64,000 nucleotides of DNA from a virus. The stretch covers positions 1 through 64,000 of the IMG/VR virus record IMGVR_UViG_3300036832_000775. One strand, given 5' to 3'. The first letter of the stretch is position 1. Each line of letters opens with the position of its first letter. Positions 20,485 through 51,379 of this stretch are shown one piece after another. The notes under the pieces are model-generated. The model was not told where the DNA came from and did no database searches. It saw only the letters and a list, made by a program, of their open reading frames with translations. A program made the translations under genes and the position numbers.

Positions 20485-23400
20485 TCACTGCTTAACCGGG
20501 CTGCCGTCATAGTTGAACGCCTTGCCCGTCGTCTTGTTTGTCCAAACTCCAGTCTGATTGTCGTAGGTGTATTTCCCGCTAGGCAGCCCGGGCGGCCGGA
20601 CGCCCGAGCGAGCTTTCCGCAGAGAGACGGCATCGTCGATCTTGTTGTCCTTGACGAACTGATCGTCGTAGTCGCCCAGGCTGAGCGTAGTCGGGCGCTG
20701 GCCCTCCTTGGCGTGTCGCCACTTCATGTAGCCCTGGCCGTATTTGTCTTGGTAATCGAGGACGCCAAGCGCCTGCGCCAGGATGGCGCGGTTCGCCTCC
20801 GGCTCCAGCTCGGCGCTGGGCGAGGCCTGCTTGTAGGACGTGATCTCGGCGACGCGCGGGGTTCCCGGCATGGCCTTGACGGCGTCCATAATCATGGCCG
20901 TCGAGTTCTTGACGTACTCCTGGTAGCTGGAGGCCGTGCTCGGATCCAAGCCGACAGCGCCCGGGTTGAAGCCGGCCGCCTTGATGTAGCGGACGACATC
21001 AGCCTTCCAGTCTGCGCCAGCTCCCGGCTTGTAGCCGCTGTCGAGGAGCCCGATGAGCGCTTCCGCGCGCTGCGCGAGGACCGGCCGGCTGCGGAGCCCC
21101 TGGCGCACGTCGGCATCCTGTTCGGACGTCGCCTTGACGTCGGCCTCTGTCCCCGCCTCCAGGCCTTTCTTGATGCCGGCCGTCCTCGCTTCCCAGGACG
21201 CCTTCGCGGCCGCGATCATCGCGTTGCCTTGATCGATGTAGGAATTGCCGGCCGTGCCGCCGCCAATGTTCATGGCGCCGCCAAGCTTGATCCGCCGCAT
21301 CCCCTCTATGTAATCCGGGTCGGTTGTGTAAGTGCCGATGTCGGCCCCAGACGTGCCGGCCCCGGTCCTATCCCCAGCTCCTCCCGCGACCTTCGTCGGC
21401 GGAGCTCCGCCCCCACCCGTTCCAGATTGCCCCGCGCCGCCCGTAGGAGCCCCGCTGGCGCCCGTTCCCCCTCCCAGGGTAGGAATAGACGGGAGAGGAC
21501 CAACGCCCGTCCCTGAGCCTCCTGTGCTCCCTGTAGAGCCGTCGCCGACGTCGATGCCCGCATCACGGAAGGCCGCGATCTGGATTTTGGCCATGCGCTG
21601 CGCGATCTGGGTCTGGATGACCTTGAAATCGGCGTCCGCGCCATGCTCGCGCGCCTCGGCCGACAGATTGGCGATCTGCGCCTGATTGTAGTTCCAGTCC
21701 TTCTCCAGGCCCTGCATCTGGCCGAGGTACTTGTTCCCGGCCGCGAAGCCCTCGCCCATCTGTGTGCCGAGCCAGGGCGAGCGAGACGCCATCATCCCTG
21801 CGCCGACCGTCATCATGTAGCCGAACGGGTCGCGCTTCAGCTCATCGCCCAAGGTCGGAGGATGGCTCGGCTGCCCGCCGCCAGGAGGAATAGCAAACCC
21901 GCCGCCGTAGCCTTCCGTAGTGGCCACGGCAGGCTGCGCGCCAGCGCTTGGGACATCGGCGCCCCCGCCCGCGACCGAGACCGGCGAGGCCTTGCCAGAG
22001 CTCAGATAGGCCTGGGCGTACTTGTCGCCCTTCCACGGCGCGAGATTGACCCCCTTGCCATGGCTATACATCTGGTCGATCGCGAACTTGCCGACGCCCT
22101 GCCATTGGTTCGGGTCAGTCGGATCGTAGCCCGCCTTGCGCGCCTGATCCCCGAGCGCGCCAGGATGGATGTTCATCTGAAAATCGCCGAACGAGAACGG
22201 CTTGCCTCCCTCGACATCGACGGTCGATCCGCCGACGCCAGGAGCGTACAGCCCCTCGGCCTTCGCGACGCCGAGCGCGATGTTTGGATCGGCGCCGGGA
22301 TAGGTCTTGGTGATGTAATCGCGATACCAGGCGGCTCGCTGCGCAGGAGTCGTCGCTCTCCGATCAGACGGGACGCCGCCGCCTCCGCCTCCGCCGCCGC
22401 CTCCGCCTCCGCCTCCGCCTCCGCCCCCTCCGCTCGGAGCTGGGGCCGGCGCGGGCGCGGGCGCGGCCCCCGCAAACGGGTCTAACGCCTCTTCGATCGC
22501 CGCGTCGCCGCCCTCTTGAAAGTTACCGCGCAGGGAGCCAAGCCCTACGCCACCTCCAGTCGCGAAACCTGTATCAAGGTTGAAAGTGTCGTCAGGGAGA
22601 GCTGCGAAATCTCCCGACAGATCAGCGCCGCTGACGATATCGCTCGCCCCGCCGCCTCCGACGTCCCCGGCGCCTCCATCCGATCCCGTCGGCGTCGTCT
22701 GCGCCCCGCTCCGGTCCTTGAAGCCCGTCAGGACGGCGCCGGCCTGCTTCATCAGATCGCCAGGACTCCCCGGCTGAGCGCCGCTCTGGGGCTCTGGCGC
22801 TTTAGGCGCCTGGGCCTGCGGCGGACCTGGCCCCAGTCTGCCGCTGCTGCCGGACGAGGCCTCGATCGCCGCCAGGAACGGATCGATCGAACCGCCCCCC
22901 TCCGCAAAGCCCATACGGCCGCCGCCGCCGAACAGATCGCCGAACCCGCTCGCGGCCTTCGAGGTCGCGAAGGATCCGAGGCCTTCGCCCTGTGAGGTCT
23001 GGCCGGACATGCCGAAGCCCTGCGGCGTATAGCCGCCAGTGTTCTCGAGAGGCGAGGAGCCCATGACGCCGCCGCCGCCCTGGAAGTTAACCGGCCCACC
23101 AGAAGCCCGAACGGGAGCGCCGAGATAATCCTCACGCGGCGGGACCCAGCTCCCGTAATCGGTGTTCGGCGTCGGCCAGGAGCCATGGTTGCCAACGATG
23201 TCGGCGTAGTTGCTGAGATTGACGCGGCCTGGCCCGCCGGCTGGGTGAGCTCCTCTAGTCCGCGCGATATGCCGCGCCGCAGCAATCGCTGGGTGAACAG
23301 GCGCTTGAGCTCGAGCGTTCGGGCTGACCCCCGCGGCGACCGCGTCGCCAGGAACGTAGGTTGAGCCGCGCGCATTGCCGGTCGTTGGCACGAAGTGGCC

Positions 23401-26400
23401 GGCGGTGATCGGCGGCCCGCCCATGAGGCTCGTGACGTCGCCGCGATAGCCGCCTTGCCCAGACGCGCCGCTCAAGGAGCTTGCCGGAAGCGTCCCCGAC
23501 ATCGGCGCGGCGTCTCGCGACGGGACGTCGCCCCCGCTGTCATTGAAGGTGTCGAAGGTGTCGTCGCTAAGATTGGCGAATATCCTGTCGAGCCATCCGC
23601 CGCTCTGCGGCGGCGGCGCCCAGGTGCCGCCTGGGTCCGTCTGGCCGGGATAGGGCATGTTGCGAGTCTCGGCGGGACTGGACGTATCGCCGCCGTCGGC
23701 GCGGCCGATGCGGCCGCCCGTCCACTCGCTCTGGAAGCCCGCGCCTCCGCCATGGAAGGCCCCTGGCAGATCGAGCTCGTCATGATGCCACATGGGCGTG
23801 CCGAACTGATCGCCCTCCGGCGGCATGATCAGTTTCGGCCCGAAGGCGCCCCCCTCTGTGTGCCCAACCGCGTGTGGCGGGACCATCGGCATCGGGCGCG
23901 GAGGCGGCGGCTCGGGCGGCGGAGCCGGGAGCCTCAACGGAGGCTCATTAACCCTGCCTTCGATCGGCGGCTCGACCTCGGTCGACGGCGGACGGTACTC
24001 GGTCTCGCCGGAGAGCGGTCCGGGTCTGACCGCAGGAACACGGGACTGGGGCGGGGGCTCGGGAGGAGGCCCCCAGTTCATCGAATGCCCGCCATAAGGC
24101 TTCGTCTTCCAGGTCTCATCCAGCGGCTCTGGGGCCGGCTCGGGTGCCGGCGGCCGGACGACAGTAGGCGGGACGATCGGCGGCTGCCGGAGGAGCGGCC
24201 CATGCAGGGGATCGCCGGCTGCGCCAGATCCTGCCGGCCCCGGCGTCGGCCAGCCAGGATAGCGCGCTGTCGAGGGATGGTCCGGCTGCGGCGTGATGTC
24301 ATGAGGCTGACCCGTCACCGGATCATGCGCGATGACGCGAGGCTTCACGATGCCGCGCGAAGCCGCCGCCTGTGCTCGAGCTCGCCCCGCGAGCTGGCGC
24401 TGCACTGCGATGGCTGGCGGCGCCTGCCGCCCTCCAAAGAGGCCAGAGAGGTCGAGCGCAGTGTAGGTCGGAGGCGTGCGCCCCGAACCGGTCCCCGGTT
24501 GAAAGGTAGTGAAGCGGGGGAAACCGCCACGCTGGAAGCCGTCGCGCACGTTCGTCCCTCCGATCCCTCCGCCTGCCGATTTTCCGGGCTGGAACATGTG
24601 CGGCGTCGGTCCGCCATAAACATCGCTGTAAGAGTGCGCATAGCCAGGCATGCCCAGCTCGCCGAGGAACCGCCCCATGTCGTTGCCGGGGCCGACTTCC
24701 GCCCATTCCTGGCTCGTCCCACCGAGCGCCGCCTGCCTCATCGGCGACTGAGGCGCTGGCTGCGATGGCGGGGGCTGCGACAGCGTTTCAGTTCCTGCCG
24801 GAACCTTTCCAGGCGTGTAGCCGAACCCGCTGCCGGAGCCGAACCCGCCGCCGGCACTGCCGCCCGCGCCAGGATCGGCGATGCCGCCGCCTTGGAAGCC
24901 CGCCCGCCCGCCGTTGGCGTGACCCGTCATTGCACCGAGGTAAGCCTGCCTACTCGCAGGCGAGACGCCGGGGGGTGGACGTGGCGGCTGCCACTGCATG
25001 GGACCCCCCCAGCCCCCGCCGCTTGGGTTGTTGTGATTTGCGACCGGGTCGAACGTCGTCGGGACCCATTGGCCTTGCGGCTGGGCTGGCGCAGCGGCGG
25101 CCGGAGCGGCGGCCGGAGCGGCGGCGAGGGGTTTCATTTCGGTTCCTGCCGGGACCTTTCCGGGCGTGTAGCCGAACCCGCCGGCACTGCCGCCCGCGCC
25201 AGAGCCGCCCGAGCCACCACCTCCGCCGCCGAAGTATTGATTGGCGATGTCGCCGAGCTGGCCGCGAGACAGTCCGCCATATGTCGCGCCAGCTCCGCCA
25301 GGGATCCGCGCGCCCCCAATTGCGGGCGGACTCGTGATGCCTCCGGAGGGAGCGACCCCGCCGCTGCCCGAGCCCCCGCCGAAGAGACCCGCGAGAGAGG
25401 CCTCGGCCGAGCCGAATTGCGGCGACGAACCGAGGTCCTGCCAGTTTGGCGATGGCGAATTGGTGACGGGCGGCATCCACTGGCCGCCGCCGATCGCCAG
25501 CGGCGCGGTGAGATCGAACCCCAAGTAGGGGTTCTTAGAACCGCCGCTCCCCAGCTCCCAAACTGAGGCGGCCATACCAGAGGCTGGCCCCACCTCTTCT
25601 CCCGGGCTCCAGCCGCCAACATTCCCTGCCGGGTTCAACGCGCCGCCGCCCTGGAAACCTTGCCGCTCGCCGCCGGCCATACCGGATGGGCGCAACGGGA
25701 CAGTCTCAAAGCCGGGGTTAGGATGAACGTCGGCCCCGCTGGCGAGCGCCATCGAGCCTAAACCCATGCGCGCGCCAGGCACCCCCATCATCATCAGATC
25801 TTGCCCAGGCGAGCCGCCTCCGCCGCCGCCTCCGCCTGCCACACCGCCGAGCGAGCCCAAGCCGCCCATCGCGCCCATCATTTGCGCGCTGCCCATCGGC
25901 GCGCCGCCGGAAGCGAAGTGGCCGCGGTCGGCTGCCTCGTCGGTCGCGCCCTCGTAGTCGACGCCGAGGAGATCGCCAACGCCGATTCGCTTCACATTGC
26001 CAGGATCGCGGTAGGCCTCTTCCTGCGCCATGAGGCCGATCTGGGTGCGCGGGTCGCCGCGGAAGTTGTAGCGGTAGATTTGCTTGCCGTCGTAGGTCTC
26101 ACCGATCGGCTCGACGTTCTCTTTCGCGCGGATATCAGAGAGACCGAACAGGCTGCCGAGCATCCCCAGTCCCTGAAGCCCGGCACCGATCCCTTGGCCG
26201 ATCGTGTTCGGCGCCGGAGAAGTGGTCTGGCCCGAGGTTGTGCCGCCGGACAGGCTTCCTGTCCCCTCGACGATGTTCCCCAACCACCCCGTTGTCGTGA
26301 ACGGATACGCCTGCCCTTGCTGATACATTTGCTGGGCGGCTTGATCGATCGCCTGCTGTTCTTGTTGCGGGATCATCCCCGCCTGGATGTTCGCCTGCGC

Positions 26401-27054
26401 GCCCTGGAGCCCAGCCTGCTGAGCGGTCTGGCCGATCGATCCGAGCTGGGACGCTGCCGACAACTGGCGCTGGGCATTGGCTTGCTGCGCACCAAGATTG
26501 ATCCCTTGCTGGTTCTGCCAGTTGCTCATCGCCTGGTTGAAATTGGACTGGTTCAATCCCGCGATCGTCGGCGCCTCGGCGAGCTGCTGCTGATTGGCCA
26601 GGATCGATTGACCGATGCCAGCTCTGTCTCCGCCGAACGCGCCCGAGCTGATGTTCGCGCTGTTCAAGAATTGCGCTTGTTGTTGATTCTGATTGTTCAT
26701 CTCCGCGGTACTCGCGTCGATGACCGACTTCGTGAACGGGTTCATGAAGGGCTGGAGCGAACCCATGCCCTGGAATTGCGATGGGTTGACCGGGGCGGCA
26801 GCCCCCATCGTCATCGCGCCTGCAGCTCCAAGGTAGGGCTGCGCGGCATTCGCGTACTGACTGATCCCACCGACCCCCTGGAGCGTCTGACTCGAGAGCG
26901 GGGCGACGAGCTCGCCCTGGTAGGGTTGGTAGGGCTGATTGGCTACGTTCGTCGCGCGATCGACAAGGCCTTGGTACTCGGCCATCACCTGGGGCGGCGG
27001 CCCAGACGACGAGGTCGACGACGTCTGCTGAGTGCCTCCGCCCTTCGAGCCCAT
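20485..27054 (-). CDS. Giant internal virion (DNA transfer) protein with internal S74 domain and lysozyme-like domain
   Basis: MGSKGGG..YQPYQG..MNPF..GAFGGDR pilot-type N-terminus; SDIRAKENV..IGLMAQE; ALGVAKAEG..SFGDFQ. Confidence 0.8.
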   Translation of the reverse strand: MGSKGGGTQQTSSTSSSGPPPQVMAEYQGLVDRATNVANQPYQPYQGELVAPLSSQTLQGVGGISQYANAAQPYLGAAGAMTMGAAAPVNPSQFQGMGSLQPFMNPFTKSVIDASTAEMNNQNQQQAQFLNSANISSGAFGGDRAGIGQSILANQQQLAEAPTIAGLNQSNFNQAMSNWQNQQGINLGAQQANAQRQLSAASQLGSIGQTAQQAGLQGAQANIQAGMIPQQEQQAIDQAAQQMYQQGQAYPFTTTGWLGNIVEGTGSLSGGTTSGQTTSPAPNTIGQGIGAGLQGLGMLGSLFGLSDIRAKENVEPIGETYDGKQIYRYNFRGDPRTQIGLMAQEEAYRDPGNVKRIGVGDLLGVDYEGATDEAADRGHFASGGAPMGSAQMMGAMGGLGSLGGVAGGGGGGGGSPGQDLMMMGVPGARMGLGSMALASGADVHPNPGFETVPLRPSGMAGGERQGFQGGGALNPAGNVGGWSPGEEVGPASGMAASVWELGSGGSKNPYLGFDLTAPLAIGGGQWMPPVTNSPSPNWQDLGSSPQFGSAEASLAGLFGGGSGSGGVAPSGGITSPPAIGGARIPGGAGATYGGLSRGQLGDIANQYFGGGGGGSGGSGAGGSAGGFGYTPGKVPAGTEMKPLAAAPAAAPAAAAPAQPQGQWVPTTFDPVANHNNPSGGGWGGPMQWQPPRPPPGVSPASRQAYLGAMTGHANGGRAGFQGGGIADPGAGGSAGGGFGSGSGFGYTPGKVPAGTETLSQPPPSQPAPQSPMRQAALGGTSQEWAEVGPGNDMGRFLGELGMPGYAHSYSDVYGGPTPHMFQPGKSAGGGIGGTNVRDGFQRGGFPRFTTFQPGTGSGRTPPTYTALDLSGLFGGRQAPPAIAVQRQLAGRARAQAAASRGIVKPRVIAHDPVTGQPHDITPQPDHPSTARYPGWPTPGPAGSGAAGDPLHGPLLRQPPIVPPTVVRPPAPEPAPEPLDETWKTKPYGGHSMNWGPPPEPPPQSRVPAVRPGPLSGETEYRPPSTEVEPPIEGRVNEPPLRLPAPPPEPPPPRPMPMVPPHAVGHTEGGAFGPKLIMPPEGDQFGTPMWHHDELDLPGAFHGGGAGFQSEWTGGRIGRADGGDTSSPAETRNMPYPGQTDPGGTWAPPPQSGGWLDRIFANLSDDTFDTFNDSGGDVPSRDAAPMSGTLPASSLSGASGQGGYRGDVTSLMGGPPITAGHFVPTTGNARGSTYVPGDAVAAGVSPNARAQAPVHPAIAAARHIARTRGAHPAGGPGRVNLSNYADIVGNHGSWPTPNTDYGSWVPPREDYLGAPVRASGGPVNFQGGGGVMGSSPLENTGGYTPQGFGMSGQTSQGEGLGSFATSKAASGFGDLFGGGGRMGFAEGGGSIDPFLAAIEASSGSSGRLGPGPPQAQAPKAPEPQSGAQPGSPGDLMKQAGAVLTGFKDRSGAQTTPTGSDGGAGDVGGGGASDIVSGADLSGDFAALPDDTFNLDTGFATGGGVGLGSLRGNFQEGGDAAIEEALDPFAGAAPAPAPAPAPSGGGGGGGGGGGGGGGGGGGVPSDRRATTPAQRAAWYRDYITKTYPGADPNIALGVAKAEGLYAPGVGGSTVDVEGGKPFSFGDFQMNIHPGALGDQARKAGYDPTDPNQWQGVGKFAIDQMYSHGKGVNLAPWKGDKYAQAYLSSGKASPVSVAGGGADVPSAGAQPAVATTEGYGGGFAIPPGGGQPSHPPTLGDELKRDPFGYMMTVGAGMMASRSPWLGTQMGEGFAAGNKYLGQMQGLEKDWNYNQAQIANLSAEAREHGADADFKVIQTQIAQRMAKIQIAAFRDAGIDVGDGSTGSTGGSGTGVGPLPSIPTLGGGTGASGAPTGGAGQSGTGGGGAPPTKVAGGAGDRTGAGTSGADIGTYTTDPDYIEGMRRIKLGGAMNIGGGTAGNSYIDQGNAMIAAAKASWEARTAGIKKGLEAGTEADVKATSEQDADVRQGLRSRPVLAQRAEALIGLLDSGYKPGAGADWKADVVRYIKAAGFNPGAVGLDPSTASSYQEYVKNSTAMIMDAVKAMPGTPRVAEITSYKQASPSAELEPEANRAILAQALGVLDYQDKYGQGYMKWRHAKEGQRPTTLSLGDYDDQFVKDNKIDDAVSLRKARSGVRPPGLPSGKYTYDNQTGVWTNKTTGKAFNYDGSPVKQ

Positions 27055-27058
27055 GGCT

Positions 27059-27625
27059 CTACTCCGCTGCCACGCTATTCGCTGGCGTCATCTCCGCAAG
27101 GCGCTGGGCGAAAGGAATCCGGTTAGGTGGCGCGTAACAGAAGAACGCGCCGAACTGCGGGAGCCAGCGGCGATAGAGCCTGATCTTCGCCGCGGTCCGA
27201 ATGTTCGAGAACACGCCGACGGTGAGATCGAGGCCGATCTGATCGGAGCATTGCTTCGCGTAAGCGATGAGGTCTGCGGCGAAGCCCATGCGCCGGTAGT
27301 CCGGCTTCACGTAATTGAAAAACTCGAGGAGCTGCCAGTCGTCCGAGTACCAGATCGGCTCGATCAGCAAGAAGATCGCGCCCTTGAGATCGTGACGATC
27401 GCCGATCACGCCGAGGATGCCGCGGCGTTCCGGCCCCTGGCGAATAGCGAGCCGGATCATCGCGGCGACCTTGCCGAGATTGAGCGGATGATAAGGTTGT
27501 TCGGCGTGCATCATCTTGCACATCTCGAGGATGCCGAACTCGTCATGCTCATCGGCCATGCGGATATTCAGGCGCGGCGGCGCGCTCCGCAGCTCAGCCT
27601 CGTGTACGCGAGAAAACTCTTTCAC
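27059..27625 (-). CDS. GNAT-fold virion-associated protein
   Basis: IRMADEHD..FNYVKPDYRRMGFAADLI..KIRLY. Confidence 0.75.
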   Translation of the reverse strand: MKEFSRVHEAELRSAPPRLNIRMADEHDEFGILEMCKMMHAEQPYHPLNLGKVAAMIRLAIRQGPERRGILGVIGDRHDLKGAIFLLIEPIWYSDDWQLLEFFNYVKPDYRRMGFAADLIAYAKQCSDQIGLDLTVGVFSNIRTAAKIRLYRRWLPQFGAFFCYAPPNRIPFAQRLAEMTPANSVAAE

Positions 27626-27930
27626 GAGTCGAGCTCCTTCTCGAACTCCGGCCAGAGGTAGAGCTCCTTGCGGCCGAAGGCATCCTTCGCGAAGCGGCTG
27701 ATCTCATCGGGCGGATCGAACGCCGTCGGCGTGCCCTCGACCTTGAGCTGCGCGAGCCCGAGGTAGCGCATCGACGGTCCAGGCTGCACGAGCCCTGCAG
27801 GGTCGGGCGGATCGGCATATGGAATCCCGGTCGGATGCAGCATGACCGGCAGCTCGGCCGCGATCTGCGGCGCGAGCGCGGCGGCCGGCGCTGCGATGCC
27901 AAGCAGCTTGAGGAATCCTCGTCTGTTCAT
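27622..27930 (-). CDS. Small twin-arginine protein carrying a capsid-like segment
   Basis: MNRRGFLKLLGIAAPAAALA; SMRYLGLAQLKVEGTPTAFD; ATGA-coupled on both sides. Confidence 0.65.
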   Translation of the reverse strand: MNRRGFLKLLGIAAPAAALAPQIAAELPVMLHPTGIPYADPPDPAGLVQPGPSMRYLGLAQLKVEGTPTAFDPPDEISRFAKDAFGRKELYLWPEFEKELDS

Positions 27931-28664
27931 TTGGCTGGCCCCGGCAATCGTTTGATCGTGTCGGCGGCCTCTTTCTTCAACGTCAGGACCCATCTGTCGA
28001 GGATGAGGTGCCCCTTATCGACATTGCCATCCCCCATTTTTGCGACCTCACTCGGCGAGATTACAAACTCGCCGCCACTCGCATTGATCGGAACCGCGCC
28101 ATTCCTCGTCGGCAGATTGGTCGCTGCGCCGCCATGCTTCTGCTTGTCAGTCAGCGCCGGGTTCTCCTCCGACATGCCCTGCGGATAGAAATTCGGCGGC
28201 GTGAAGTGCATCGGCGGCGGCTTGCCCCTGGGTATCTTGATGCCCTTGCCGACCTTGAGCGCCGGAGATGGCGCGCCCCATGGCGCCTTTGGCGCGCCCC
28301 ACGGGCTGCCAAACATCATCTTCAATTGGCTCATGCCGCTGACGGTGTTCCCTTCGCCCAAGTGCGAGACCGCCCAAGCCGGGACGACGTAACTTCCATC
28401 GGGGACATGCATGGGAACGTCGTCGGCGCGGCCGGCGCCTGCCGACATGATGCCGCCAGTGAACGGCGACTCGGGACTATCCTCGATGCCGCCGCCTGTC
28501 TCGCCGCCTTCCGCGCGCCCAGGCCGCATCAGCATGCGGTCGCTGACCCCAGCTCCGAATTTCGGCGTCGCCATTGGTTTCGGGAGCGTCGGCATGCGAG
28601 GCGGCTTACTCGCACCGAGCATGCGCTGGATGCGGATAGCCGACGGGTTGTAGCCGTTCGCCAT
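27927..28664 (-). CDS. Virion protein with a duplicated D-x-VP...G(S/E)(Y/F)V...LG-x-GN domain
   Basis: RADDVPMHVPDGSYVVPAWAVSHLGEGN and VPINASGGEFVISPSEVAKMGDGN. Confidence 0.75.
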   Translation of the reverse strand: MANGYNPSAIRIQRMLGASKPPRMPTLPKPMATPKFGAGVSDRMLMRPGRAEGGETGGGIEDSPESPFTGGIMSAGAGRADDVPMHVPDGSYVVPAWAVSHLGEGNTVSGMSQLKMMFGSPWGAPKAPWGAPSPALKVGKGIKIPRGKPPPMHFTPPNFYPQGMSEENPALTDKQKHGGAATNLPTRNGAVPINASGGEFVISPSEVAKMGDGNVDKGHLILDRWVLTLKKEAADTIKRLPGPAK

Positions 28665-28667
28665 GGC

Positions 28668-28943
28668 TTACACCGGATAGTAGGGAACGAGACGAGGACC
28701 GACGCCAGGAATGTCGACAGTGATGTAGCCGTCAGGCGAGGTGGGCAGCGGCCCCGCACGCTGTGCGACAGCGCCCATCTGCCCGGTCATGGAGCCGCGC
28801 GCGAGGCCGCTTAATTGCGTCGCAACATCGCTGAGCACTGGGCTAATGCCAGCTGTCGCTCGAATGAGATGGCCGAGCTGAGTATTTCCGTTTTGCAGCG
28901 TTGAGATCAACGTCTGCAGTTCACCTCCGCTGACGTCCGCCAC
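28668..28943 (-). CDS. Small virion protein
   Basis: AGGAGG RBS; LPTSPDGYITVDI..LVPYY. Confidence 0.65.
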   Translation of the reverse strand: MADVSGGELQTLISTLQNGNTQLGHLIRATAGISPVLSDVATQLSGLARGSMTGQMGAVAQRAGPLPTSPDGYITVDIPGVGPRLVPYYPV

Positions 28944-28962: not shown

Positions 28963-31200
28963 TCAGTTGCGACCGTCAGGAGCGAACCGGAACTTGAAAC
29001 CGCCCAACCGTGCAAAAGACCCAAGGTCATTGCCTTGGATCTCCGCGAAGAAATAGCGCCCTCTGCACCGGACCTCAACTGCCCCGGTGGCATTGGTGAC
29101 AATAAAAGGCCCGTAGGGGATCCAGGTTTCTCGCGGGTCGTCTGGATACTCGGCCGTGTAGAGGATGATTTGGACCTGGGCGCTGACGCTCTGCGGTTGT
29201 TGCCAGCGCCGCCAGCGCATGTCGGGAATCATGTAGTCGATGAAGACTTTGTCCTCGCCCTCGCTCAGCATGAAGAAGCCCGTCTGAACCATCCAATTGA
29301 TCGGCTGGCCGTTGGCGTCCGCCCCCATCTCATGCTGGTGGATCATCGAGTTGACCCCGCCGGAGACAACCATCGACGAGACGGGATGGCCGAAGATGTT
29401 GTTGTCGAGCCAGGCCGTGACATGGATTGGAGTCTCGCCGACCATGCCTTCCTGCGGGGTCGAGAGCGAATAGTCCCACTCCCCGGTAACCGGGTTGAAC
29501 TTCACCCAGCTGTCGTTCTCGCCATCCACCGAAGCCATCGAGGGGAAGTGAAAGGCGACCTCGTCAAAGCCAGAGTTAGCCGCGCCTCGGATATGGTGGA
29601 AGTAGAAGTAGTCCCCGTCGCTGTCCCTGGCGTTGTTTAGATTCTTGATGATCACGTCCCAGACGTCGCACTGGAGCCGCTGCACGGTGCCGTTAGAGTA
29701 CATCCAGAAGGCATCGCGCGACATCCAGAAGACTTGCGGGCCGTAGATGGCCCAGGCGTGCTTGCCGATAAGTCCACAGCCCTGCGCCACCTCGTTGAAG
29801 CCAAATACATTGGGATATCCGATGTAGGCCATCACCCACAAACCAACATCTGTCCAAAGCATAGCCTGCTGGGGTCCTTGGCAGCCACCTATGATTTTAC
29901 TTCCGCGCGTCAGTCGATATGTTCCAGCTTGATTGGAAACCGCCGCGGTCCAGGTGTTATAGTTGGCGTTATCGCACCAGGCGACGAGCATGGGGTCCTG
30001 CACCTGGCCCGTGCTTGCTCCGTAGGCGATGATTTGCTGTTCGGGCATGCCGATGAAGAAGCCCGAGGCATAGCTCGGCCCGTTGCCGATCCGCTCCGAG
30101 TTCTGAATCCCGCTCGTCGGGTCCCAGGCGAACAGCGGCCCGTTGATCGCGCTCGAGATCAGCTGCGAGCCCCAGTTAGCGAGCGTCCAGTCGTCGCCGG
30201 AGATCGCGCCGAACCCAACCGTCCCCTCCGGCGGCGGGTATGGCGTCCCCGATAGCGGCGACGGTTGCTGGCCTACGCCCCAGCCGCCGGTGCCCCAGCC
30301 GCCGACGCCCCAACCTGAGTTCGGCAGGAGCGGCGCTTGCGTGACCCAATAGATGAGCTGCGGCGCGCCACTGAGGTTCGCTTCATTCGTTGTGGCCGAC
30401 GTCGGGCACGATTCCTGCGCGAAGATGATGAAGTGGTTCGCGTCGATGACCTCTTGGACTGGATAGAAGCCCTGCAGCGTCACCGTCCCTGCAGGATTAG
30501 TGTTATCGCCGATGTACGTCGGCATCGGGATTGAGAAGTACGCGCCCGCAACCAGCCCATGGCTCGGCAGATAGACGTTGACGACCTCGGTGTTCGCGTT
30601 CGAGGTGAATGTGGCGACGCACGGCGTCGTCGCGGTGGCGGCGCTGACCGCGGAGAATGGCAGCGTGATCGTGTACTGCAGATTGGTCAGCATCGTTGTG
30701 ATCGGGTAGGTGCCGAAGATCACGATGCCGCCGACGGCGACATGGCACTCGATCTGGACCGAGCCGTAATTGTTTATCTGGGCATTGGGGTCGTTGATCG
30801 TGACGATCGGCGAGCCCGCCGTTGTCGTAAAGGTCTGACCGTTGGTCGAGACCGCATACTGCGGCGTGATGGTTTGATTGGCCGGCCGGCCGCCTTGGGT
30901 CGGCGTTAGGACGTTCAGGCCAGCTGAGCCCGCAATCGCGAGATGGTAACTGAGATTGAGGTCCATCCAGGCGCATAGGTCGCGCGTGATGCCATTGACC
31001 GTTTGAGTGGCTGAGCCGGTAGGCGGACCGCTGGCGACGTTCCAGAGCCCCGTCGCGAAAAAATTGATCCAGCCGCCATACTTCTCCGGCAGGCCGCCCT
31101 TCCAGCGAATCATGTTCGAGGCGACGATGTTCGCCTGAAGCAGCGTCGGAGTCTGAAGCGCCTTAACTCCTGGCTGGATCTTGACGGTCTCGAAGGGCAT
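28963..31200 (-). CDS. Tail nozzle / DNA stabilization protein (P22 gp10-like position)
   Basis: KIQPGV..IRWKGGLPEKYGGW; NQAGTYRL; CGLIG; RGR; C-terminal PDGRN; beta-propeller-like. Confidence 0.75.
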   Translation of the reverse strand: MPFETVKIQPGVKALQTPTLLQANIVASNMIRWKGGLPEKYGGWINFFATGLWNVASGPPTGSATQTVNGITRDLCAWMDLNLSYHLAIAGSAGLNVLTPTQGGRPANQTITPQYAVSTNGQTFTTTAGSPIVTINDPNAQINNYGSVQIECHVAVGGIVIFGTYPITTMLTNLQYTITLPFSAVSAATATTPCVATFTSNANTEVVNVYLPSHGLVAGAYFSIPMPTYIGDNTNPAGTVTLQGFYPVQEVIDANHFIIFAQESCPTSATTNEANLSGAPQLIYWVTQAPLLPNSGWGVGGWGTGGWGVGQQPSPLSGTPYPPPEGTVGFGAISGDDWTLANWGSQLISSAINGPLFAWDPTSGIQNSERIGNGPSYASGFFIGMPEQQIIAYGASTGQVQDPMLVAWCDNANYNTWTAAVSNQAGTYRLTRGSKIIGGCQGPQQAMLWTDVGLWVMAYIGYPNVFGFNEVAQGCGLIGKHAWAIYGPQVFWMSRDAFWMYSNGTVQRLQCDVWDVIIKNLNNARDSDGDYFYFHHIRGAANSGFDEVAFHFPSMASVDGENDSWVKFNPVTGEWDYSLSTPQEGMVGETPIHVTAWLDNNIFGHPVSSMVVSGGVNSMIHQHEMGADANGQPINWMVQTGFFMLSEGEDKVFIDYMIPDMRWRRWQQPQSVSAQVQIILYTAEYPDDPRETWIPYGPFIVTNATGAVEVRCRGRYFFAEIQGNDLGSFARLGGFKFRFAPDGRN

Positions 31201-31203
31201 GGT

Positions 31204-32007
31204 TCACCCCGCAGGAGCCCCAGCTGGAGCCGGCATCGACGGCGATTGATACGACGACATCATGCCCCAGCCGAGAAACTTCTTCCTGGTCTCTTCGCTC
31301 TTCGCCGAGCTCAGCAGCGTTTGGAATTGCGTCTCCCAGCTCACCGCCATGCGCGGGTCGTCGGCCTGGGCGCCGTAGTTCTTGCGGTAGCCCGAGGCGG
31401 AGACCATCGCGCAGGCGAGGAAGAGATCTGGCAGGACCTGGGTCAGGAATGTGGTCTGCGTCCCGTCGGCCGGCGCGGCCAGGTAGAGCGGGACCGGACG
31501 CGCAGAGCCATGCACCAGGAAATAATAGGCCTGGTCCGGCATCGGCCCGAACACGAGCGTCTGGTCGTCGAGGAGCGCGAAGCGCACCGGCTGCCCAGTG
31601 GTTTCAGGGTTCGGAAAGACGCCGCTGTAGATCGCGTCAAGGTAATCGACCGTGCTCGGGAGGCAGGGCTCTCCGCCAACCGTCGGGGCCACGCCAGGAA
31701 TGGGCGGGAGGACCGCATTGGGCGGCTCGACCCGGACCCGATCGACGACGAGAATTTGCTGCGGTGGGGATGGGGTCGAATAGACCGCGCCGCCGACCGC
31801 GAAGCTCTGCGAGCGCCGGAAAGGAGCCATCTGGAACCACTGCCGCGCCTCTGCGGTCAGGAGGTCAAGCTCGCGATAGCAGCGCTGTTCGGCATAATCG
31901 ATGATGGTAGGCAGGACGGCGACGAAGTTCGGTTCGTTCACGTTGTTGTTCGGAACGACCATCTCGATCGCGAGCGCGGTTTGGAAAGTTGTATAATTAT
32001 AACTCAT
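31204..32007 (-). CDS. Head-tail adaptor
   Basis: IIDYAEQRCYREL..GPMPDQAY..TFL..PDLFL. Confidence 0.75.
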   Translation of the reverse strand: MSYNYTTFQTALAIEMVVPNNNVNEPNFVAVLPTIIDYAEQRCYRELDLLTAEARQWFQMAPFRRSQSFAVGGAVYSTPSPPQQILVVDRVRVEPPNAVLPPIPGVAPTVGGEPCLPSTVDYLDAIYSGVFPNPETTGQPVRFALLDDQTLVFGPMPDQAYYFLVHGSARPVPLYLAAPADGTQTTFLTQVLPDLFLACAMVSASGYRKNYGAQADDPRMAVSWETQFQTLLSSAKSEETRKKFLGWGMMSSYQSPSMPAPAGAPAG

Positions 32008-37269: not shown

Positions 37270-37436
37270 CTACTGCCAAACTTCTTGCGCTTGACGAGAT
37301 AGCCGCTGAACCCATGCGCGCGCAGAATCTTGCTGATCGTGCCTTGGCTCACGCCCAGCTCGACCGCGATCTCGTCTTGCTTCCAGCCCTTGGCGCGCAA
37401 CGCCTTGACCTTCTCGATGAAGCCCTCGTCAATCAT
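37266..37436 (-). CDS. 56-aa HTH protein (absent from ORF track)
   Basis: manual translation MIDEGFIEKVKALRAKGWKQDEIAVELGVSQGTISKILRAHGFSGYLVKRKKFGSR. Confidence 0.7.
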   Translation of the reverse strand: MIDEGFIEKVKALRAKGWKQDEIAVELGVSQGTISKILRAHGFSGYLVKRKKFGSR

Positions 37437-38193
37437 AGTAGCTCTGGATCATCGGCAAGAGGTAGATCGAGCCGTCTTCTGTGTCCTGCGTCGCGGCAAT
37501 CCCATAGGCCTCGTCGGCCTGCGCCTTGCGCTGCGCTTCGAGATCCTGCGCGTAATGCGTCGCCAATCGATAAGCGAGGCCAGCGCAGGCCGCATCGAGC
37601 CAGCGATAGGGGATGTCGAGCTGCATCGCCCCGCGATGCATTGCATCGTACTGCTGACCATAGCTCCAGACGTGGACATGATAGACGTCATTGGGCGTCG
37701 GCCAGAACGTGATCGTCTGCGCGATCGTGCGGTCATACCAGAACGACGTCGGCCGGCTTTGCTGCGCCTTGCGCGGCTGCATCGTGTACTCTTGCCGCGT
37801 CATCGGCGTGATCGTGAGCTCGCTTTCATCTGGCGGGTCGCCCGTGCCGATCGTGACGTTGAGCACCATGATGTTGGTCGAGGGCAGCGGATAGGTCGCG
37901 AGGCCGACTTGCGTGTCGAAGGTTTGCTCGACGACCTTCCAGAGGTTCGGCCCTTTGTTGCTCCACTGCACTTGAAGCAGGTTCGCTTCCATCCACGCCT
38001 GGTGCAGATGCTCGGCGAGCACCATCGGCCCGCGGATCCGGATCCGCGAGAGCGCGTTGAGCGTGCATTCGCCGAGCGACGGGAAGAAGTTGAAGCTGCC
38101 GCTGGTACGGGATGGCTGCGGCGGCGGCGGGTTGTAGGCGCCGATCGACGAGCCGCCGACAATGAACGTGCCGATGGCGCTCTGCAGGCTCAT
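37429..38193 (-). CDS. Head-tail connector/adaptor
   Basis: W.NKGPNLWKV..GRP-like SRPTSFWYDR..WPTP..DIPYRWLDA..GLAYRLA. Confidence 0.75.
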   Translation of the reverse strand: MSLQSAIGTFIVGGSSIGAYNPPPPQPSRTSGSFNFFPSLGECTLNALSRIRIRGPMVLAEHLHQAWMEANLLQVQWSNKGPNLWKVVEQTFDTQVGLATYPLPSTNIMVLNVTIGTGDPPDESELTITPMTRQEYTMQPRKAQQSRPTSFWYDRTIAQTITFWPTPNDVYHVHVWSYGQQYDAMHRGAMQLDIPYRWLDAACAGLAYRLATHYAQDLEAQRKAQADEAYGIAATQDTEDGSIYLLPMIQSYYD

Positions 38194-45538: not shown

Positions 45539-45769
45539 TCATTTCGTCAGGCCTTTGACGGCCCACATAACCGCCTCTTCGACGCGCGTCACAGCAAGAG
45601 AGGCCTCACGGCTCGCGGGCACATTGGCCTCGATGGCTCGAATAAGCCCGAGGCCCATGTCCTTGAGGTGCGTCATCCCGGCCTTCTCCGCGTCGGTCAG
45701 AACGCGGTACTGGTGGCGCATCGTATTGTTGACGGTGCGATCGTCGCTTGCGCTGTCGACATGCGTCAT
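45539..45769 (-). CDS. Acb2/Tad1-like helical-hairpin protein (putative cyclic-nucleotide sponge)
   Basis: YRVLTDAEKAGMTHLKDMG..SREASLAVTRVEEAVMWAVKGL. Confidence 0.65.
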   Translation of the reverse strand: MTHVDSASDDRTVNNTMRHQYRVLTDAEKAGMTHLKDMGLGLIRAIEANVPASREASLAVTRVEEAVMWAVKGLTK

Positions 45770-46899
45770 TCGGCCAGCTCAATCTTCCCGCTATTGTTGC
45801 GCTTGGCGTTCGCCATCCGGCCCTGGCCGGAGCCTGCACCAAACTTCTGACTGATGCGGCCGCCGCTCGCGCGACCTGGCATGCCTGGGGGCATCATGTG
45901 TGGGGGGAGTCCTGGCGGCATGCCGCCAGGCGGAGCGCCAGCTGGCCCCATCGGCGCGCCTGGCGGCGGCCCCATCGGAGGAGGACCTCCAGGTCCTGCG
46001 CCAGGAGGCCCAACGGGTGGCATCGGCGGCCGCGGCGGCGGCATCGGCGGCGGGACCGGCCCAGGAGCGGCCATAGGCGGCGGAGCCGGCGGTTGCTGTC
46101 CCTGCCCGTGCCCGACGATCACATTGACGACGGTCTTGCCCTTGCCCTTGCCCTTCGTCCGGCCGCCGCGCGCGCGGGGGACCCGGCCGCCGGCAGCCTG
46201 GCGCGGCGGCTCGGCGGCCTCATCAGAGCCAATGCCGCCCTGGCCTTTCGGCGCTCCGACAGATCTCCCGCCGAGACCGCCGGTAATGAAGTCGTAGTAT
46301 TCATGCTGACCAGGAATCGAAGTGTCTAACCACTCGGGCTTCTGTTCCGCGTAGACATCTTTCTGGCCGAGCACGTCTCTTTCTGGGCCGCCTCTCCAGC
46401 GCCCGATTCGGCCGCCTTTGGCGCGAATCAGCGGCCGATCGCCGTAGCTTTTCGGGCCGCCATCGGTGACCTTGGAAATATCGCGCGTCTTGCCACCATT
46501 GGCGCGCGCGACTCGACCGCCCTTGGCGCGGGTGGGAGGATAATTCTCGCCAGTGAACCGATCCTTGCCGGATGCGTCCTCGTTCGCCATGGTCCGGCCA
46601 GCTTGGGTGAACTCGTCTTTGGCAGTCGCCTGTCCGCCGAGCGAGCGCCCGATTCGGCCGCCGGCAGCTCGTGCGGCGCGCCCAAGCGACGGCGCCCTCG
46701 CGGCTCCGCCGGTAGCGAAGGCCGAGCAATCGCTCGTCTTGGCGGCTGCCCGCCCATAATCGTCAGCGGACGCGCCCTTGTCGCCGTTGCCGCCGTTGTT
46801 TTTGCCTGACGCCGCAAACTTTTGCAGTTTGTCGGTCGTAAAGGCCTTTTGAGAGTTCGCGCCCATGGCGGGGACCTTTCTGGGGTCCCAGCCTTTCAC
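45766..46899 (-). CDS. Basic, disordered protein with about ten xAxGG motifs and a Pro/Met-rich tail
   Basis: FATGG, RAAGG, RAKGG x2, RANGG, QAAGG, RARGG, RASGG; KGKTVVNVIV. Confidence 0.75.
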   Translation of the reverse strand: MKGWDPRKVPAMGANSQKAFTTDKLQKFAASGKNNGGNGDKGASADDYGRAAAKTSDCSAFATGGAARAPSLGRAARAAGGRIGRSLGGQATAKDEFTQAGRTMANEDASGKDRFTGENYPPTRAKGGRVARANGGKTRDISKVTDGGPKSYGDRPLIRAKGGRIGRWRGGPERDVLGQKDVYAEQKPEWLDTSIPGQHEYYDFITGGLGGRSVGAPKGQGGIGSDEAAEPPRQAAGGRVPRARGGRTKGKGKGKTVVNVIVGHGQGQQPPAPPPMAAPGPVPPPMPPPRPPMPPVGPPGAGPGGPPPMGPPPGAPMGPAGAPPGGMPPGLPPHMMPPGMPGRASGGRISQKFGAGSGQGRMANAKRNNSGKIELAE

Positions 46900-46972: not shown

Positions 46973-47191
46973 ATGATGGCACAACTTCCCCCGCCGGATC
47001 ATCCGGCCTGGCAGCAATGGGCGCGGACGAGCCCGGTCCTCGCCGGCATGCTTCAACGCGGCGACCCGCTCACGCGCGGCACCTGGCTGCGGCGCAGTTA
47101 TGTGTTCGATGAAGTTCCTGACCCCGTGCCCCCCGAGGTCGAACAGCAGATGCCGCCGCCCTTCCGGCAGCTAAATGAGGATCAGGGCTGA
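46973..47191 (+). CDS. Small counter-oriented protein, possible immunity partner
   Basis: own promoter and RBS; converges on the C-terminal domain of the 1343-aa gene. Confidence 0.65.
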   Translation: MMAQLPPPDHPAWQQWARTSPVLAGMLQRGDPLTRGTWLRRSYVFDEVPDPVPPEVEQQMPPPFRQLNEDQG

Positions 47192-50100
47192 CCACCCGCG
47201 GGCCGGAAGGTCCCAAACCAGCGCGGATCCCTGATCCTCTCGCCGTTCGGCCCCAAGATCGCATCATGGGCCTGATCCATCGTCATCTGGTTGTTCTGGT
47301 AAGCCCGCCAGATGCCGTTGGTGATGTCGGTTTGAGACGTAAAGTTCTTCTTTAGGTTCGTCTTGGCGCTCTTCTCTCCCGGCGTCCATCTGCCACGAAG
47401 CGCTTCCCAGGTGATCGATTGCATTTCGCGCGGCAGGATCCCCGCCTTTTCAGCCGCCCTGCGATAGGCCTCGGCGACGAACGGATAAAAGCCCTGGGCG
47501 CCAGTCTCGTTATGCGTCGGGCTGGCCGCCCCCATGCCAGACGCCGCCTCCGGCGCGCCCGCGCCCAGCGGACGTAGGAGAGCCGCCGCCACAGCGTGCG
47601 TGTCGCTGGTGACGTCGCCCTTCCGCGACCATGGCGCGATGATGTTGTTGAAGAACGAGCGCACTTTGTGGCCGCCGCCGAGCGCCTCTGAAATATCGCC
47701 CATGCTCTGAGCATGAAACGCCCGGATGGCGTTTGCGGCTTCGTTGGTCGAGCCCCACGAGACCGGGATTGGCTGGCCCGCGACGTTCTTATATTCATCG
47801 CTGTAGGCGGCGTTCACTCCGTCGTGGGTCCCGTCCGGATTGTTGATGTAATAGCCGTACTTGCGGTCGCCCTTGTCATCGATCCAATGCAGGGGCTCTC
47901 CCTTGGCTATTTCAATCTGCCTGCCGCCAGCGCCCTGCCATTTATAATCCGCATCGCTGATCGGCATCAGATGATCCGGCGGCCCGTGCGCCTCGTAATA
48001 GGCGCGCGTGTAGAACGCCTTCTGTTCTGGGGTCATCTGACTCCAGGGCTTCCCGGCGACCTCGTCGAGCTGGCGGAGAACGTCCTGCTGACTGACACTG
48101 TTCGGGGACATCACCTCGCCAGTTTTGGCGTTGTATCGCGTCTCCTTGCCAGTCGCCTGGTCGACCTCAACCCGCTCCGGATCCTTGCGAAGAGCGTAGC
48201 GATTCACCCAGTCGGTCATATCCCCGGTCATCGTGGCGTCTGGCGCGGTCGTTCCGGCGGTATGCGCGACCCAATCCGCGAGCGTGACGTTCTGATCCCA
48301 GTCTTTCTGCGGCGACATTGCCGCCACAACGCCGGCTGCGTTCTCGTGCGGGATATCGTGGGTCAACGCGATATCGCGCGATCGGCCGTGCGCGCCCTCG
48401 TACCAGAGACGAGAACCGTTCTTCACCGCATCGCTTATTCGCTGGTAGAGACCGCTGATATTGTCGGTCATGTGCCCGATTAAGGCCTCATGGATCTCCG
48501 CATCGGTCGCGCCAGGCGCCACCTTGATGAAGGGGATCTTGCCGCTCCGGACCATGTCGGCGACGGCCTTGCCGTATCTCGGCCCCGCTTGCTTCACTAG
48601 GTCCATGCCGACGTGCGCGTCGTTGTTCGCGTGGGCGGCCTGTTCGGCCTCGATCGGCGCATTTGGGTCATCGTTCCACGGGACCGAGGTCCCGACCCGG
48701 CTCTCGGGGAACTCTGGGTCGATATGTCGTTTGACGCCGTTGATGTCCAAGACCTGGGCGCGAGGCGTTGCCGCGGCCGCCGAGACGTCAGACCCGGCAC
48801 CGCCCAGGCGTGGCGCAGCTGCCTCCGGCACCCCATGCATGCCCATCGTCAGGTCACCGCCGAGCATCGGGTCGGATGCCAGCTCACTGCCAGCGCCATA
48901 AATGCCTTTCGCGAGATTCGCCTCGGTCTCTGGGCTCATCGTGCGCCAGCCGAACGCCGGGAACGGATCCGCGATAGTGCCAGCGATAGCTTTGGAGCCG
49001 AACTCGCCGGCCTTGCCGGCCGCGTAATCGAGGCCGCTCACTCCAGCGCTCACCTCGTCTCCCAGGGTCTTGCCCCATCGGCCGTACCAAGTTGTCGGCT
49101 CGGTCGGAGCTGCCTCCGGCTGCGGATATTGCTCGGGGTGCGCTTGCCGGAATTGCTCCGCCTGGGCCTCTTGCTGCGCTCGAGCTTGAGCGTTCGCCGT
49201 GAACGCATCCTGGCTCTGATCGTCAGGAGCTCCGCCGGCCTGGAAGCCATGGCGCGGCTGCATCAGCAGCTCGAGGCGACGGCGCAGGGCTTCGCTCTCA
49301 GAGACGCTGCCGCCGGCCGCGCGCGGCAAGATGTCCTGGCCCCAGCGCCAGCGGCCAGGCGAGCCCCACCACTGCATCGAGCGGGGCGCGCGCTCCATTT
49401 CGGCCGGATGGAAGTCGCGGCGCACGTCCATTGGCAAACCAAACCGGCCTTCGCCGGTATTGGCCGCCTGGACCTCGCCCGCGCTAGTGCCGTAGGCCAT
49501 GCCCTTCGCGGTCTCGATTAGCTCAGCGCGCGGCTTGCTCTTGTATTCCTTCTGGTTGAGCAACCACAGAAGCGCTTTTTGGCCAGGTGAGCCTTGTTGG
49601 TGCACCCCCTGCACATTCGGATTGGTGCCAGGAGGCCAGCCTTCGATATCTTGGACCGCATGCTGGCCTTCGTGAGCGAGCGTCGGGTAGGCCTCCCCGG
49701 GCGGCATGTCGGCGTTCAGGACGAAAGCCTTGGCGTCACGGTTGTAGCCGCCGAGGACGTCGCCCATGTGCTCCTTGCCGAGGAACCGGACCGGCATGTC
49801 GGCGAGCTCGGGGTAATTCTCGTAGAGCTCGGGGTGCTCGTAGACCTCCGACAATTTGTAGACGTCGCCAGGGCGGCCCCATTTTGAGTAGTCCGGCGGG
49901 TGAGTTGGGTCGGCGATCTCGGTATGCCAGTTGCCTTCCGGATCCTGGCCCCAGACATGGCGGTTCCAGACGTCGTAGGGGTGATCGCCGGCCTGCAGGC
50001 CCGCTTTCGCGGCGGCGAGGGCGTCGCGATCGACGTTTCGAGCGCCCGTGCCCAGGAACATCGCGCCGATCGGCGCGACCGAATGCGCGATCGTGGGCGC

Positions 50101-51213: not shown

Positions 51214-51379
51214 CAGCCATCTCGAAACCGGCCCGCTCGTAGAGGAAATCGTCGAGCGGCGTGTACTCGTCGTCGTCCCAATAGTGGGACAGGTCGATCC
51301 ATTCCTTGACCCATTCCCAGAGCTTCGCTGCGCCGTAATTCGCTTCTAGGGCCGCGAGCATCCCAGATTCGTCGCTCAT
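51203..51379 (-). CDS. 58-aa acidic Trp/Tyr-rich protein (absent from ORF track)
   Basis: ATGA overlap with portal stop; MSDESGMLAALEANYGAAKLWEWVKEWIDLSHYWDDDEYTPLDDFLYERAGFEMADGG. Confidence 0.55.
   Translation of the reverse strand: MSDESGMLAALEANYGAAKLWEWVKEWIDLSHYWDDDEYTPLDDFLYERAGFEMADGG

Follow-up and report, generated by a model that had tools for sequence, protein, structure and literature searches.

A strictly C-terminal double unit in a candidate DNA-ejection protein of a short-tailed phage

To carry DNA across the cell envelope, short-tailed phages have to expel proteins that build a channel, and there is little understanding of how these proteins, and the enzymes that travel with them as cargo, come to be chosen for the particle. 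The gene considered here lies on the minus strand at 27927..28664 of a 64,000-nucleotide stretch of viral DNA (hereafter the window), which is the first 64 kb of the 72,948-base IMG/VR virus record IMGVR_UViG_3300036832_000775, a record rated 93% complete. It encodes a protein of 245 amino acids (aa) that carries two copies of one short unit, each preceded by a glycine pair (GG), and a sequence-only reading of the window had taken this protein for a domain freed from a tape measure protein that acts in trans, as a reader or a protease, on the many GG-bearing proteins of the same phage. What, then, is the double unit for? The answer that we favour on balance, and hold to be probable rather than secure, is that the 245-aa protein is a virion-internal protein of the ejection apparatus of a short-tailed phage and that the double unit serves as its C-terminal docking handle. 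This reading draws on the anatomy of the domain, its strictly C-terminal position, its fusions to enzymes, its fusion to and co-occurrence with a domain of the phrog_4287 type, and the order of the surrounding genes.

The gene was taken from the list of open reading frames (ORFs) of the window, and its start and end are common to its homologues, 90 of which have the same N- and C-terminus. The two tandem copies that had been noticed, at residues 79–110 and 188–218, are indeed copies of one unit. Local alignment of residues 1–140 with residues 141–245 gave a score of 53, compared with 31.6 ± 5.6 for 500 shuffled sequences, two of which reached 53, and comparison of a unit 1 profile with a unit 2 profile by hhalign, using a 71-sequence alignment (A5), gave a probability of 96.7% (P 3.5e-10, score 47.5, 40 columns), a score that none of 150 column-shuffled controls reached (9.9 ± 2.3, maximum 17.6; hhalign printed one format error among these control runs). 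AlphaFold2 predicts secondary structure that is alike in both units, with strands at residues 83–88 and 92–94 and helices at 96–102 and 107–118 in unit 1, strands at 190–195 and 200–202 and helices at 204–210 and 215–239 in unit 2, and disorder in the remainder of the protein. As delimited by this model and by the profile repeat test, unit 1 spans residues 78–120 (28305..28433; this and all other features of the protein are on the minus strand) and is predicted to consist of a beta-hairpin and two helices, and unit 2 spans residues 188–239 (27948..28103) and is predicted to consist of a beta-hairpin, a short helix and a long terminal helix. The mean predicted local distance difference test score (pLDDT) was 65 for the whole protein; for residues 60–245, modelled with 71 sequences, it was 80, with a predicted template modelling score of 0.67 and 95 residues at a pLDDT of at least 90.

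Each copy follows a GG, as had been claimed, and both the glycine pairs and the units themselves are conserved. Motif 1 (RAEGG, residues 50–54; 28503..28517) lies in a segment with a pLDDT below 50, and in the alignment of 32 sequences on which our calls of invariant residues rest its aligned column pair is G57, which is invariant, and G58, which is at least 90% conserved; in motif 2 (QKHGG, residues 175–179; 28128..28142) G178 and G179 are both invariant. In the model, neither RAEGG nor KHGG is docked, and confidence is low in both segments. Unit 1 is also preceded by the strand FTGGI (residues 68–72; 28449..28463; G70 invariant, I72 at least 90% conserved), which forms a two-residue beta bridge in the domain model at a pLDDT of 81–86. 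The invariant residues of unit 1 are R79, D81, V87, Y92, V93, P95, V99, G103, N106 and G110, and those of unit 2 are P192, G197, G198, E199 and D223, with H219 at least 90% conserved. A Pro/Gly-rich linker (residues 121–174; 28143..28304; pLDDT 44–57) joins the units; its length varies, such that the two unit cores are 52 to 331 residues apart in 198 relatives. The protein ends in a conserved LPGPAK (27930..27947), of which P241, G242, P243 and A244 are invariant. At the other end a helix (residues 6–17; 28614..28649; helix 8–16 in the model), present in close relatives only, is conserved at N6, I12 and L16 in alignment A3 and is missing from short family members such as P0235. Across the family, an x-x-x-GG lies 8–45 residues upstream of the unit in 152 of 167 units, compared with 1251 of 3340 random positions (37%) in the same proteins. 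On this count, the upstream GG belongs to the unit itself, in cis.

To which family does the protein belong? It matched no Pfam family at E ≤ 10, no NCBIfam family, and in PHROGs only three families weakly, the best of which is of unknown function and none of which is a peptidase. A word-indexed search returned 90 relatives, none named beyond 'hypothetical protein', and a profile search of 1.84 billion cluster representatives returned 4,553 matches at E ≤ 0.001 (1,055 at E ≤ 1e-30), of which the best 150 are listed here. Among 50,697 deposited phage genomes only MW202675 carries a relative of the 245-aa protein itself; with a central family member as query, MW202675 was found again together with a weak match in MW202545, and both are from uncultured phages. 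A search of genome contigs with the single 245-aa protein as query gave 110 pattern matches and no relatives. The position of the double unit is strict: in 233 of 234 relatives no more than five residues separate the end of the profile match from the C-terminus, and 218 of the 234 end, like LPGPAK, in P-x-P and two polar or charged residues, in proteins whose lengths range from 135 to 1083 aa and whose part before the first unit ranges from 24 to 836 residues. Proteins with one unit also exist, and in these the unit lies either 13–24 residues from the C-terminus or ahead of a phrog_4287-like domain that is part of the same protein. One-unit proteins are found in cultured phages (four Caulobacter phages, two Planktothrix phages and Synechococcus phage MinM2) and in the metagenome-assembled DSL-LC04, making eight records in all. 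For these carriers the only item among the papers listed is a genome note for DSL-LC04, and none of the papers listed for the motif strings and for tape measure C-termini was relevant. Within the libraries searched the family has no description; neither Pfam nor NCBIfam includes it, and its members come almost exclusively from uncultured phages.

The N-terminal partners of the double unit in longer relatives include enzymes. Of 20 longer members scanned with Pfam, 7 carry a family at the thresholds used and 13 do not. Three of the assignments are clear, namely ART-PolyVal in P0109 (46.9 bits, cut-off 31.2), InPase in P0081 (163 bits) and DUF7178 in P0134 (91.8 bits), the last of which also occurs in a 1343-aa polyvalent protein encoded in the window; DUF6496 in P0085 scored 24.5 bits (cut-off 24), and ART-PolyVal in P0142 and DUF6496 in P0080 fell below the cut-off. 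ART-PolyVal, InPase and DUF7178 are domains of packaged, injected polyvalent phage proteins, a statement for which the source cited covers InPase: the polyvalent-protein paper (Iyer, Burroughs, Anand, de Souza and Aravind 2017; PMC5512222) assigns it to phage-type polyvalent proteins, which are packaged and delivered. The relatives P0109, P0081 and P0134 each carry one such effector domain in front of the double unit, and we therefore regard the double unit as a module used by polyvalent proteins. The 245-aa protein differs from these in that it has no enzyme domain, let alone two or more effector domains in one chain, as assessed by Pfam, and in that the double unit falls in no Pfam family; the words 'glycine' and 'GG motif' are absent from the paper's text (PMC5512222). 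We note that five members (P0080, P0085, P0087, P0090 and P0155) share a conserved N-terminal segment of about 45 residues matching phrog_2423, a family of unknown function, and that this segment is a recurrent partner of the C-terminal double unit in distant family members.

Around the gene, the order on the minus strand is an SU10-type adaptor, a 745-aa protein, a 91-aa ORF, the 245-aa gene, a GNAT-like gene, a 2189-aa protein and a 707-aa protein. The adaptor (31204..32007, 267 aa) matches Pfam PF24175 (E 7.5e-13, 49.8 bits, cut-off 27). The 745-aa protein (28963..31200), which follows it and which we regard as a putative nozzle protein, matches phrog_3287, a virion structural protein, and is 31% identical (E 4e-114) to a protein of MW202675 that its depositors named 'phage stabilization protein'. 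The 91-aa ORF (28668..28943), for which no family was found in Pfam, PHROGs or NCBIfam, lies directly upstream of the 245-aa gene. Downstream lie the GNAT-like acetyltransferase (27059..27625, 188 aa), whose matches to Acetyltransf_1 and Acetyltransf_7 are both below the curated Pfam cut-off, and the 2189-aa protein (20485..27054), which is of an internal-virion or ejection type: its residues 1–368 match phrog_4287 ('DNA ejection protein') and residues 306–345 match Peptidase_S74. PDB sequence searches with the first 350 aa of the 2189-aa protein and with the 707-aa protein gave no matches.

Comparison of 84 IMG/VR loci with family members, which a script classed as 16 two-unit and 68 one-unit loci (L086 entered the two-unit class by a loose criterion, and L004/5, L010/11 and L015/16 are near-duplicates), indicated that this arrangement recurs. 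In the two-unit loci the gene lies in a block after the adaptor and the putative nozzle, beside the large internal protein: 14 of the 16 encode a homologue of the 745-aa protein upstream, in the same orientation (52 of the 68 one-unit loci also encode one upstream), the GNAT gene is present in 15 of the 16, mostly directly downstream, the N-terminal domain found in the giant protein is present in 14 of the 16, and the 91-aa ORF is conserved directly upstream in 5 of the 16. MW202675 keeps the same gene order, and its giant protein was named 'internal virion protein D'. The N-terminal 305-aa domain of the 2189-aa protein is, in other phages, fused to a single unit; a phrog_4287-like domain is fused in 14 of the 84 unit-bearing ORFs and is present somewhere in 75 of the 84 loci. 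A predicted complex of the GNAT neighbour with the 245-aa protein scored 0.00 in two runs (mark 0.32), a result obtained without controls that counts neither way. In phage SU10, according to the published report (PMC9509320), the proteins encoded after the nozzle and needle (gp20–24) are ejection proteins, which are present in virions and gone after genome release.

Peptidase_S74, a self-cleaving chaperone domain, is followed in the 2189-aa protein by about 1,800 residues that are largely Gly/Pro-rich, and the presence of this domain inside an internal-virion-type protein is unusual; the equivalent in Planktothrix phage Pag-Yong1 is a separate 316-aa gene. A further small ORF on the minus strand (27622–27993) lies between the 245-aa gene and the GNAT gene and overlaps the 3′ end of the former. 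It encodes 123 aa, or about 102 aa if it starts from a Met beside the stop of the 245-aa gene, has a twin-arginine-like signal (weak TAT_signal match, E 0.005), and is present by BLAST in only 2 of 16 related loci (L006 and L009).

Tape measure proteins are the siphophage counterpart of ejection proteins, and the sequence-only reading had pointed to a FAxGG...GEFV pairing near the C-terminus of lambda gpH. The element exists there and in other lambda-like tape measure proteins. Residues 732–790 of gpH hold FATGG, GEFV about 20 residues on, a G-x-G-N turn and ATGG, outside the Pfam domains TMP_2 (54–256) and Tape_meas_lam_C (627–701), and the element occurs in 1,047 of the 50,697 phage records. 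A profile of eight tape-measure modules matched the family alignment A2 (hhalign probability 79%, P 1.5e-5, 40 columns including FAxGG), the unit alignment (probability 90%, P 1.5e-6) and alignment A1 (P 3.1e-5), and none of 150 column-shuffled controls reached any of these scores; a hidden Markov model (HMM) of the tape-measure modules ranked the 245-aa ORF first of 927 six-frame ORFs, at E 0.73. The shared pattern is [FY][AS]xGG, about 13–20 residues, GE[FY]V, a stretch of eight residues, G-x-x-N and finally a helix, and it suggests an element common to tape measures and the family over about 40 residues, either by descent or by strong convergence. In gpH no more than about 120 residues separate the element from the C-terminus, and in the family of the 245-aa protein it is found right at that end; its carrier gpH is expelled and makes up the DNA channel. 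Tape measures differ in that the element is present in one copy, embedded in a protein of at least 850 aa with TMP_2 and Tape_meas_lam_C, without a GRxD segment, H..D helix or LPGPAK terminus. The 245-aa protein is not itself a tape measure protein, as judged by its length and by its lack of TMP_2 and Tape_meas_lam_C, and the genes around it (adaptor, putative nozzle, fibres and internal proteins) are not a long-tail set.

What is known of gpH gives the element a setting. That gpH is processed, as the sequence-only reading had it, is correct: according to the lambda report (PMC12617516), on which all statements about gpH in this paragraph rest, cleavage in a glycine-rich stretch close to the C-terminus, at a site and by a protease that are both unknown, yields gpH* and gpHC, the latter a fragment of about 14 kDa. 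Residues of about 690–817 are unresolved and residues 818–849 bind the tail-tip hub protein gpI, such that the element falls in the unresolved N-terminal part of gpHC, the fragment whose C-terminus binds gpI (PMC12617516).

Taken together, these data are consistent with the 245-aa protein being a small structural part of the DNA-ejection apparatus, either an internal-virion or a tail-channel protein. Its working part would be the strictly C-terminal domain, in which a GG, short strand, beta-hairpin and pair of helices occur twice ahead of a free LPGPAK tail. We infer that the protein is present in the virion, where this domain would dock it onto the putative nozzle and onto the giant protein with its phrog_4287-type N-terminal domain, and that the docked protein would exit the particle together with the DNA or before it. 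In other phages the domain would dock enzymes fused at its N-terminus or inserted between the two units. A single copy of the unit opens the C-terminal fragment of lambda-like tape measure proteins. In its likeness to known ejection proteins (T7 gp14–16, P22 gp7/gp20/gp16 and SU10 gp20–24), the 245-aa gene lies downstream of an adaptor and putative nozzle, its giant neighbour is filed as 'DNA ejection protein' by PHROGs and as 'internal virion protein D' by depositors, and long disordered Gly/Pro-rich stretches are present. It differs from them in that no sequence or fold similarity to any solved ejection protein was detectable.

Several observations weigh against this docking and ejection reading. 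The A1 profile matched none of the PDB chain sequences at E ≤ 10, neither a characterised ejection protein nor anything else. The identity of the putative nozzle is assigned from gene position, PHROG category and a depositor's name, and Pfam and PDB sequence searches with the 745-aa protein gave no match. The two-unit form is present in only 2 uncultured records of the 50,697. The tape-measure likeness is short, and against the single gpH sequence alignment A1 gave P 0.0095 (probability 4.3%) and the unit HMM 3.7 bits, below the maximum of 7.2 among 4,000 shuffles. The apparent GNAT fusion in P0124 is weak (24.3 bits, cut-off 30). Finally, the conserved polar residues R79, D81, Y92, N106, E199, D223 and H219 could equally mark a metal or catalytic site. 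We separately considered whether the GNAT part of P0124 belongs to the GNAT family of the window and rejected this (hhalign P 0.22).

These polar residues raise the question of whether the protein is an enzyme, and in particular a peptidase, as the stronger half of the sequence-only reading had proposed. The premise of that reading holds, in that the phage is rich in GG motifs: the strict pattern [RKQ][AK]xGG[RKSG][IVTP] occurs 10 times in the window compared with 0.3 expected (7 times in a 377-aa protein, twice in the 1343-aa protein and once near the C-terminus of the portal), and a loose GG pattern occurs 26 times where 6.6 would be expected, with 11 of these occurrences falling in the 2189-aa protein. 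The 245-aa protein matched no peptidase family model in Pfam, NCBIfam or PHROGs, and Pfam scans of 10 further window proteins revealed no peptidase. Searches for a protease fold with two models gave best E values of 0.93 (first model) and 2.1 (second model) with Foldseek against the PDB, and best Z scores of 2.8 and 3.0, with none at Z ≥ 5, in a VIA search of 48,161 representative solved chains; this is an absence of match and does not prove a different fold. BFVD held three uncharacterised proteins of uncultured phages at E ≤ 0.001. An Atlas search returned hypothetical viral clusters only, of which the nearest named, crAss cargo protein 1, scored 0.82, under the bar of 0.9, and was not used. 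The invariant residues (R79, D81, Y92, N106, E199 and D223, with H219 at least 90% conserved) fitted no catalytic motif that we could name. Peptidases specific for GG (the C39 bacteriocin-leader, JAB/MPN and other deubiquitinase-like families) resemble the system only in the GG of the presumed target motif, and the 245-aa protein differs from them in having no family or structural match. Nothing found in the protein points to catalysis, and binding in trans is unsupported.

The alternatives to a docking handle on an ejected protein can be weighed against the same data. Peptidase_S74 is typical of trimeric fibres and needles, and the protein might instead be a plug of the tail channel or a needle adaptor, which would remain at or within the nozzle to close or prime the channel rather than being stored in the head and ejected as cargo. 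The gene directly follows those of the putative nozzle and the 91-aa ORF, one-unit forms are fused before a Q/N-rich phrog_4287 domain with, in the window, the Peptidase_S74 chaperone coming next, the gene after the unit protein of Pag-Yong1 is named 'S74 domain-containing protein', and the gpHC fragment at the lambda tail tip offers a possible analogy. We nevertheless consider a fixed plug unlikely, as the fusions to enzymes of the polyvalent, injected class suit cargo better, and neither PDB sequence searches nor VIA structure searches found similarity to solved needle or plug proteins. A different possibility, the milder half of the sequence-only reading, is that the hairpin units are non-catalytic readers that use strand addition to bind, in trans, orphan RAxGG motifs found in the 377-aa, 1343-aa, portal and 2189-aa proteins, and that they would thereby chaperone the assembly of the internal proteins or glue them together. 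The enrichment of the strict motif, with 7 copies in the 377-aa protein, would fit such a reader, as would the fact that each unit has its own upstream GG-bearing segment, and the FTGGI beta bridge in the model suggests that strand capture is physically plausible. The presence of a GG in cis in 152 of 167 units, on the other hand, suggests that a unit may be satisfied by its own motif; unit and motif share one chain in the 1,047 phage records that have the tape-measure element, a standalone two-unit gene is found in only one or two deposited phage records, and the RAEGG and KHGG segments are of low confidence and undocked in the model. We regard such a reader as quite improbable.

Cleavage has been considered in two forms. 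The unit might direct cleavage at its own upstream GG, autocatalytically or through a recruited virion peptidase, and so free an N-terminal cargo, in which case the same event would yield gpH* and gpHC in lambda. In favour of this, the cut in gpH falls in the glycine-rich stretch that immediately precedes its unit (PMC12617516), GG motifs lie between domains in polyvalent relatives and in the 1343-aa protein of the window (at 238, 246, 631 and 657), and D81, E199 and D223 do not vary and H219 is kept in at least 90% of the sequences; the tape-measure unit, however, has no such D/H/D residues, and no known autoproteolytic fold or motif was found with Pfam or VIA, which leaves self-processing very doubtful. 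We hold in equally low regard a broader proposal, that the GG-strand, hairpin and helix unit is an ancient, portable 'release-and-dock' element of siphophage tape measures and of podophage ejection and cargo proteins, which would fold onto a strand bearing the GG and direct cleavage there, and whose standalone double form would capture in trans those RAxGG motifs that stand orphaned in the 377-aa, 1343-aa, portal and 2189-aa proteins. Were it true, it would explain how gpH is processed to gpH* and gpHC and how polyvalent proteins release their cargo domains, and the standalone double form would organise or process the internal protein core. Least likely of all, and in our view highly improbable, is a protease that acts on GG motifs in trans. 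Only the co-occurrence with motif-rich proteins in the genome of the window and the invariant polar residues speak for it; the searches for a peptidase family, a PDB sequence match or a structural match (best Z 3.0) speak against it, repeats of about 40 residues with a hairpin and helices are not, to our knowledge, a known protease architecture, and the window holds a better candidate in the HEGQH motif within the DUF6782 region of the 1343-aa polyvalent protein. Of the sequence-only reading, therefore, the standalone duplicated GG...GE[FY]V-type domain and its likeness to tape measures stand, and the reading or cleaving of GG motifs in trans is not supported: the GG sits in cis, and the architecture and the gene neighbourhood point to a C-terminal handle.

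The motif-rich proteins of the window, all encoded on the minus strand, merit description in their own right. The 377-aa protein (45766–46899) is very basic and has a long proline-rich tract and 7 RAxGG[RK][IV]-type motifs compared with 0.05 expected; five RAxGG motifs fall within its residues 55–175. Pfam, PHROGs and NCBIfam assign it to no family; one possibility is a core protein that binds nucleic acids by means like those of an RGG box. The 1343-aa polyvalent protein (47182–51213) contains Hydrolase_2 (96–220), LPD23, a weak match to DUF6782 and DUF7178 (1159–1275); its RAxGG motifs lie between Pfam domains, and its HEGQH, a zincin motif at residues 514–518 inside the weak DUF6782 match, makes it, on sequence grounds, a more conventional peptidase candidate for any processing. 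Peptidases of this kind have been proposed to process polyvalent proteins (PMC5512222). The portal-like protein (51376–54186, 936 aa, phrog_1216) carries, in the tail at its C-terminus, a single RAAGGSV-type motif (residue 895), and the 2189-aa protein has 11 F/R-[AQ]-x-GG motifs compared with 2.7 expected. Elsewhere in the window, the SU10-type adaptor at 31204–32007 (minus strand, 267 aa) has a paralogue at 37429–38193 (minus strand, 254 aa; PF24175, E 1e-10, compared with 7.5e-13 for the former); the two share one structural module, and fibre genes lie between them. GC skew stays within ±0.07 over the first 58 kb and makes a sharp excursion to −0.29 at 60001–62000, over a terminase-like ORF (60249–61922).

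Our analyses define a large family with a strictly C-terminal double unit of unmatched predicted fold, and the unit recurs on cargo enzymes and on ejection proteins. If the double unit is a docking and ejection handle, it would provide a sequence tag with which injected phage proteins could be predicted in metagenomes, and its single copy in lambda gpH would offer a concrete element to mutate in addressing the question of how gpH is processed.

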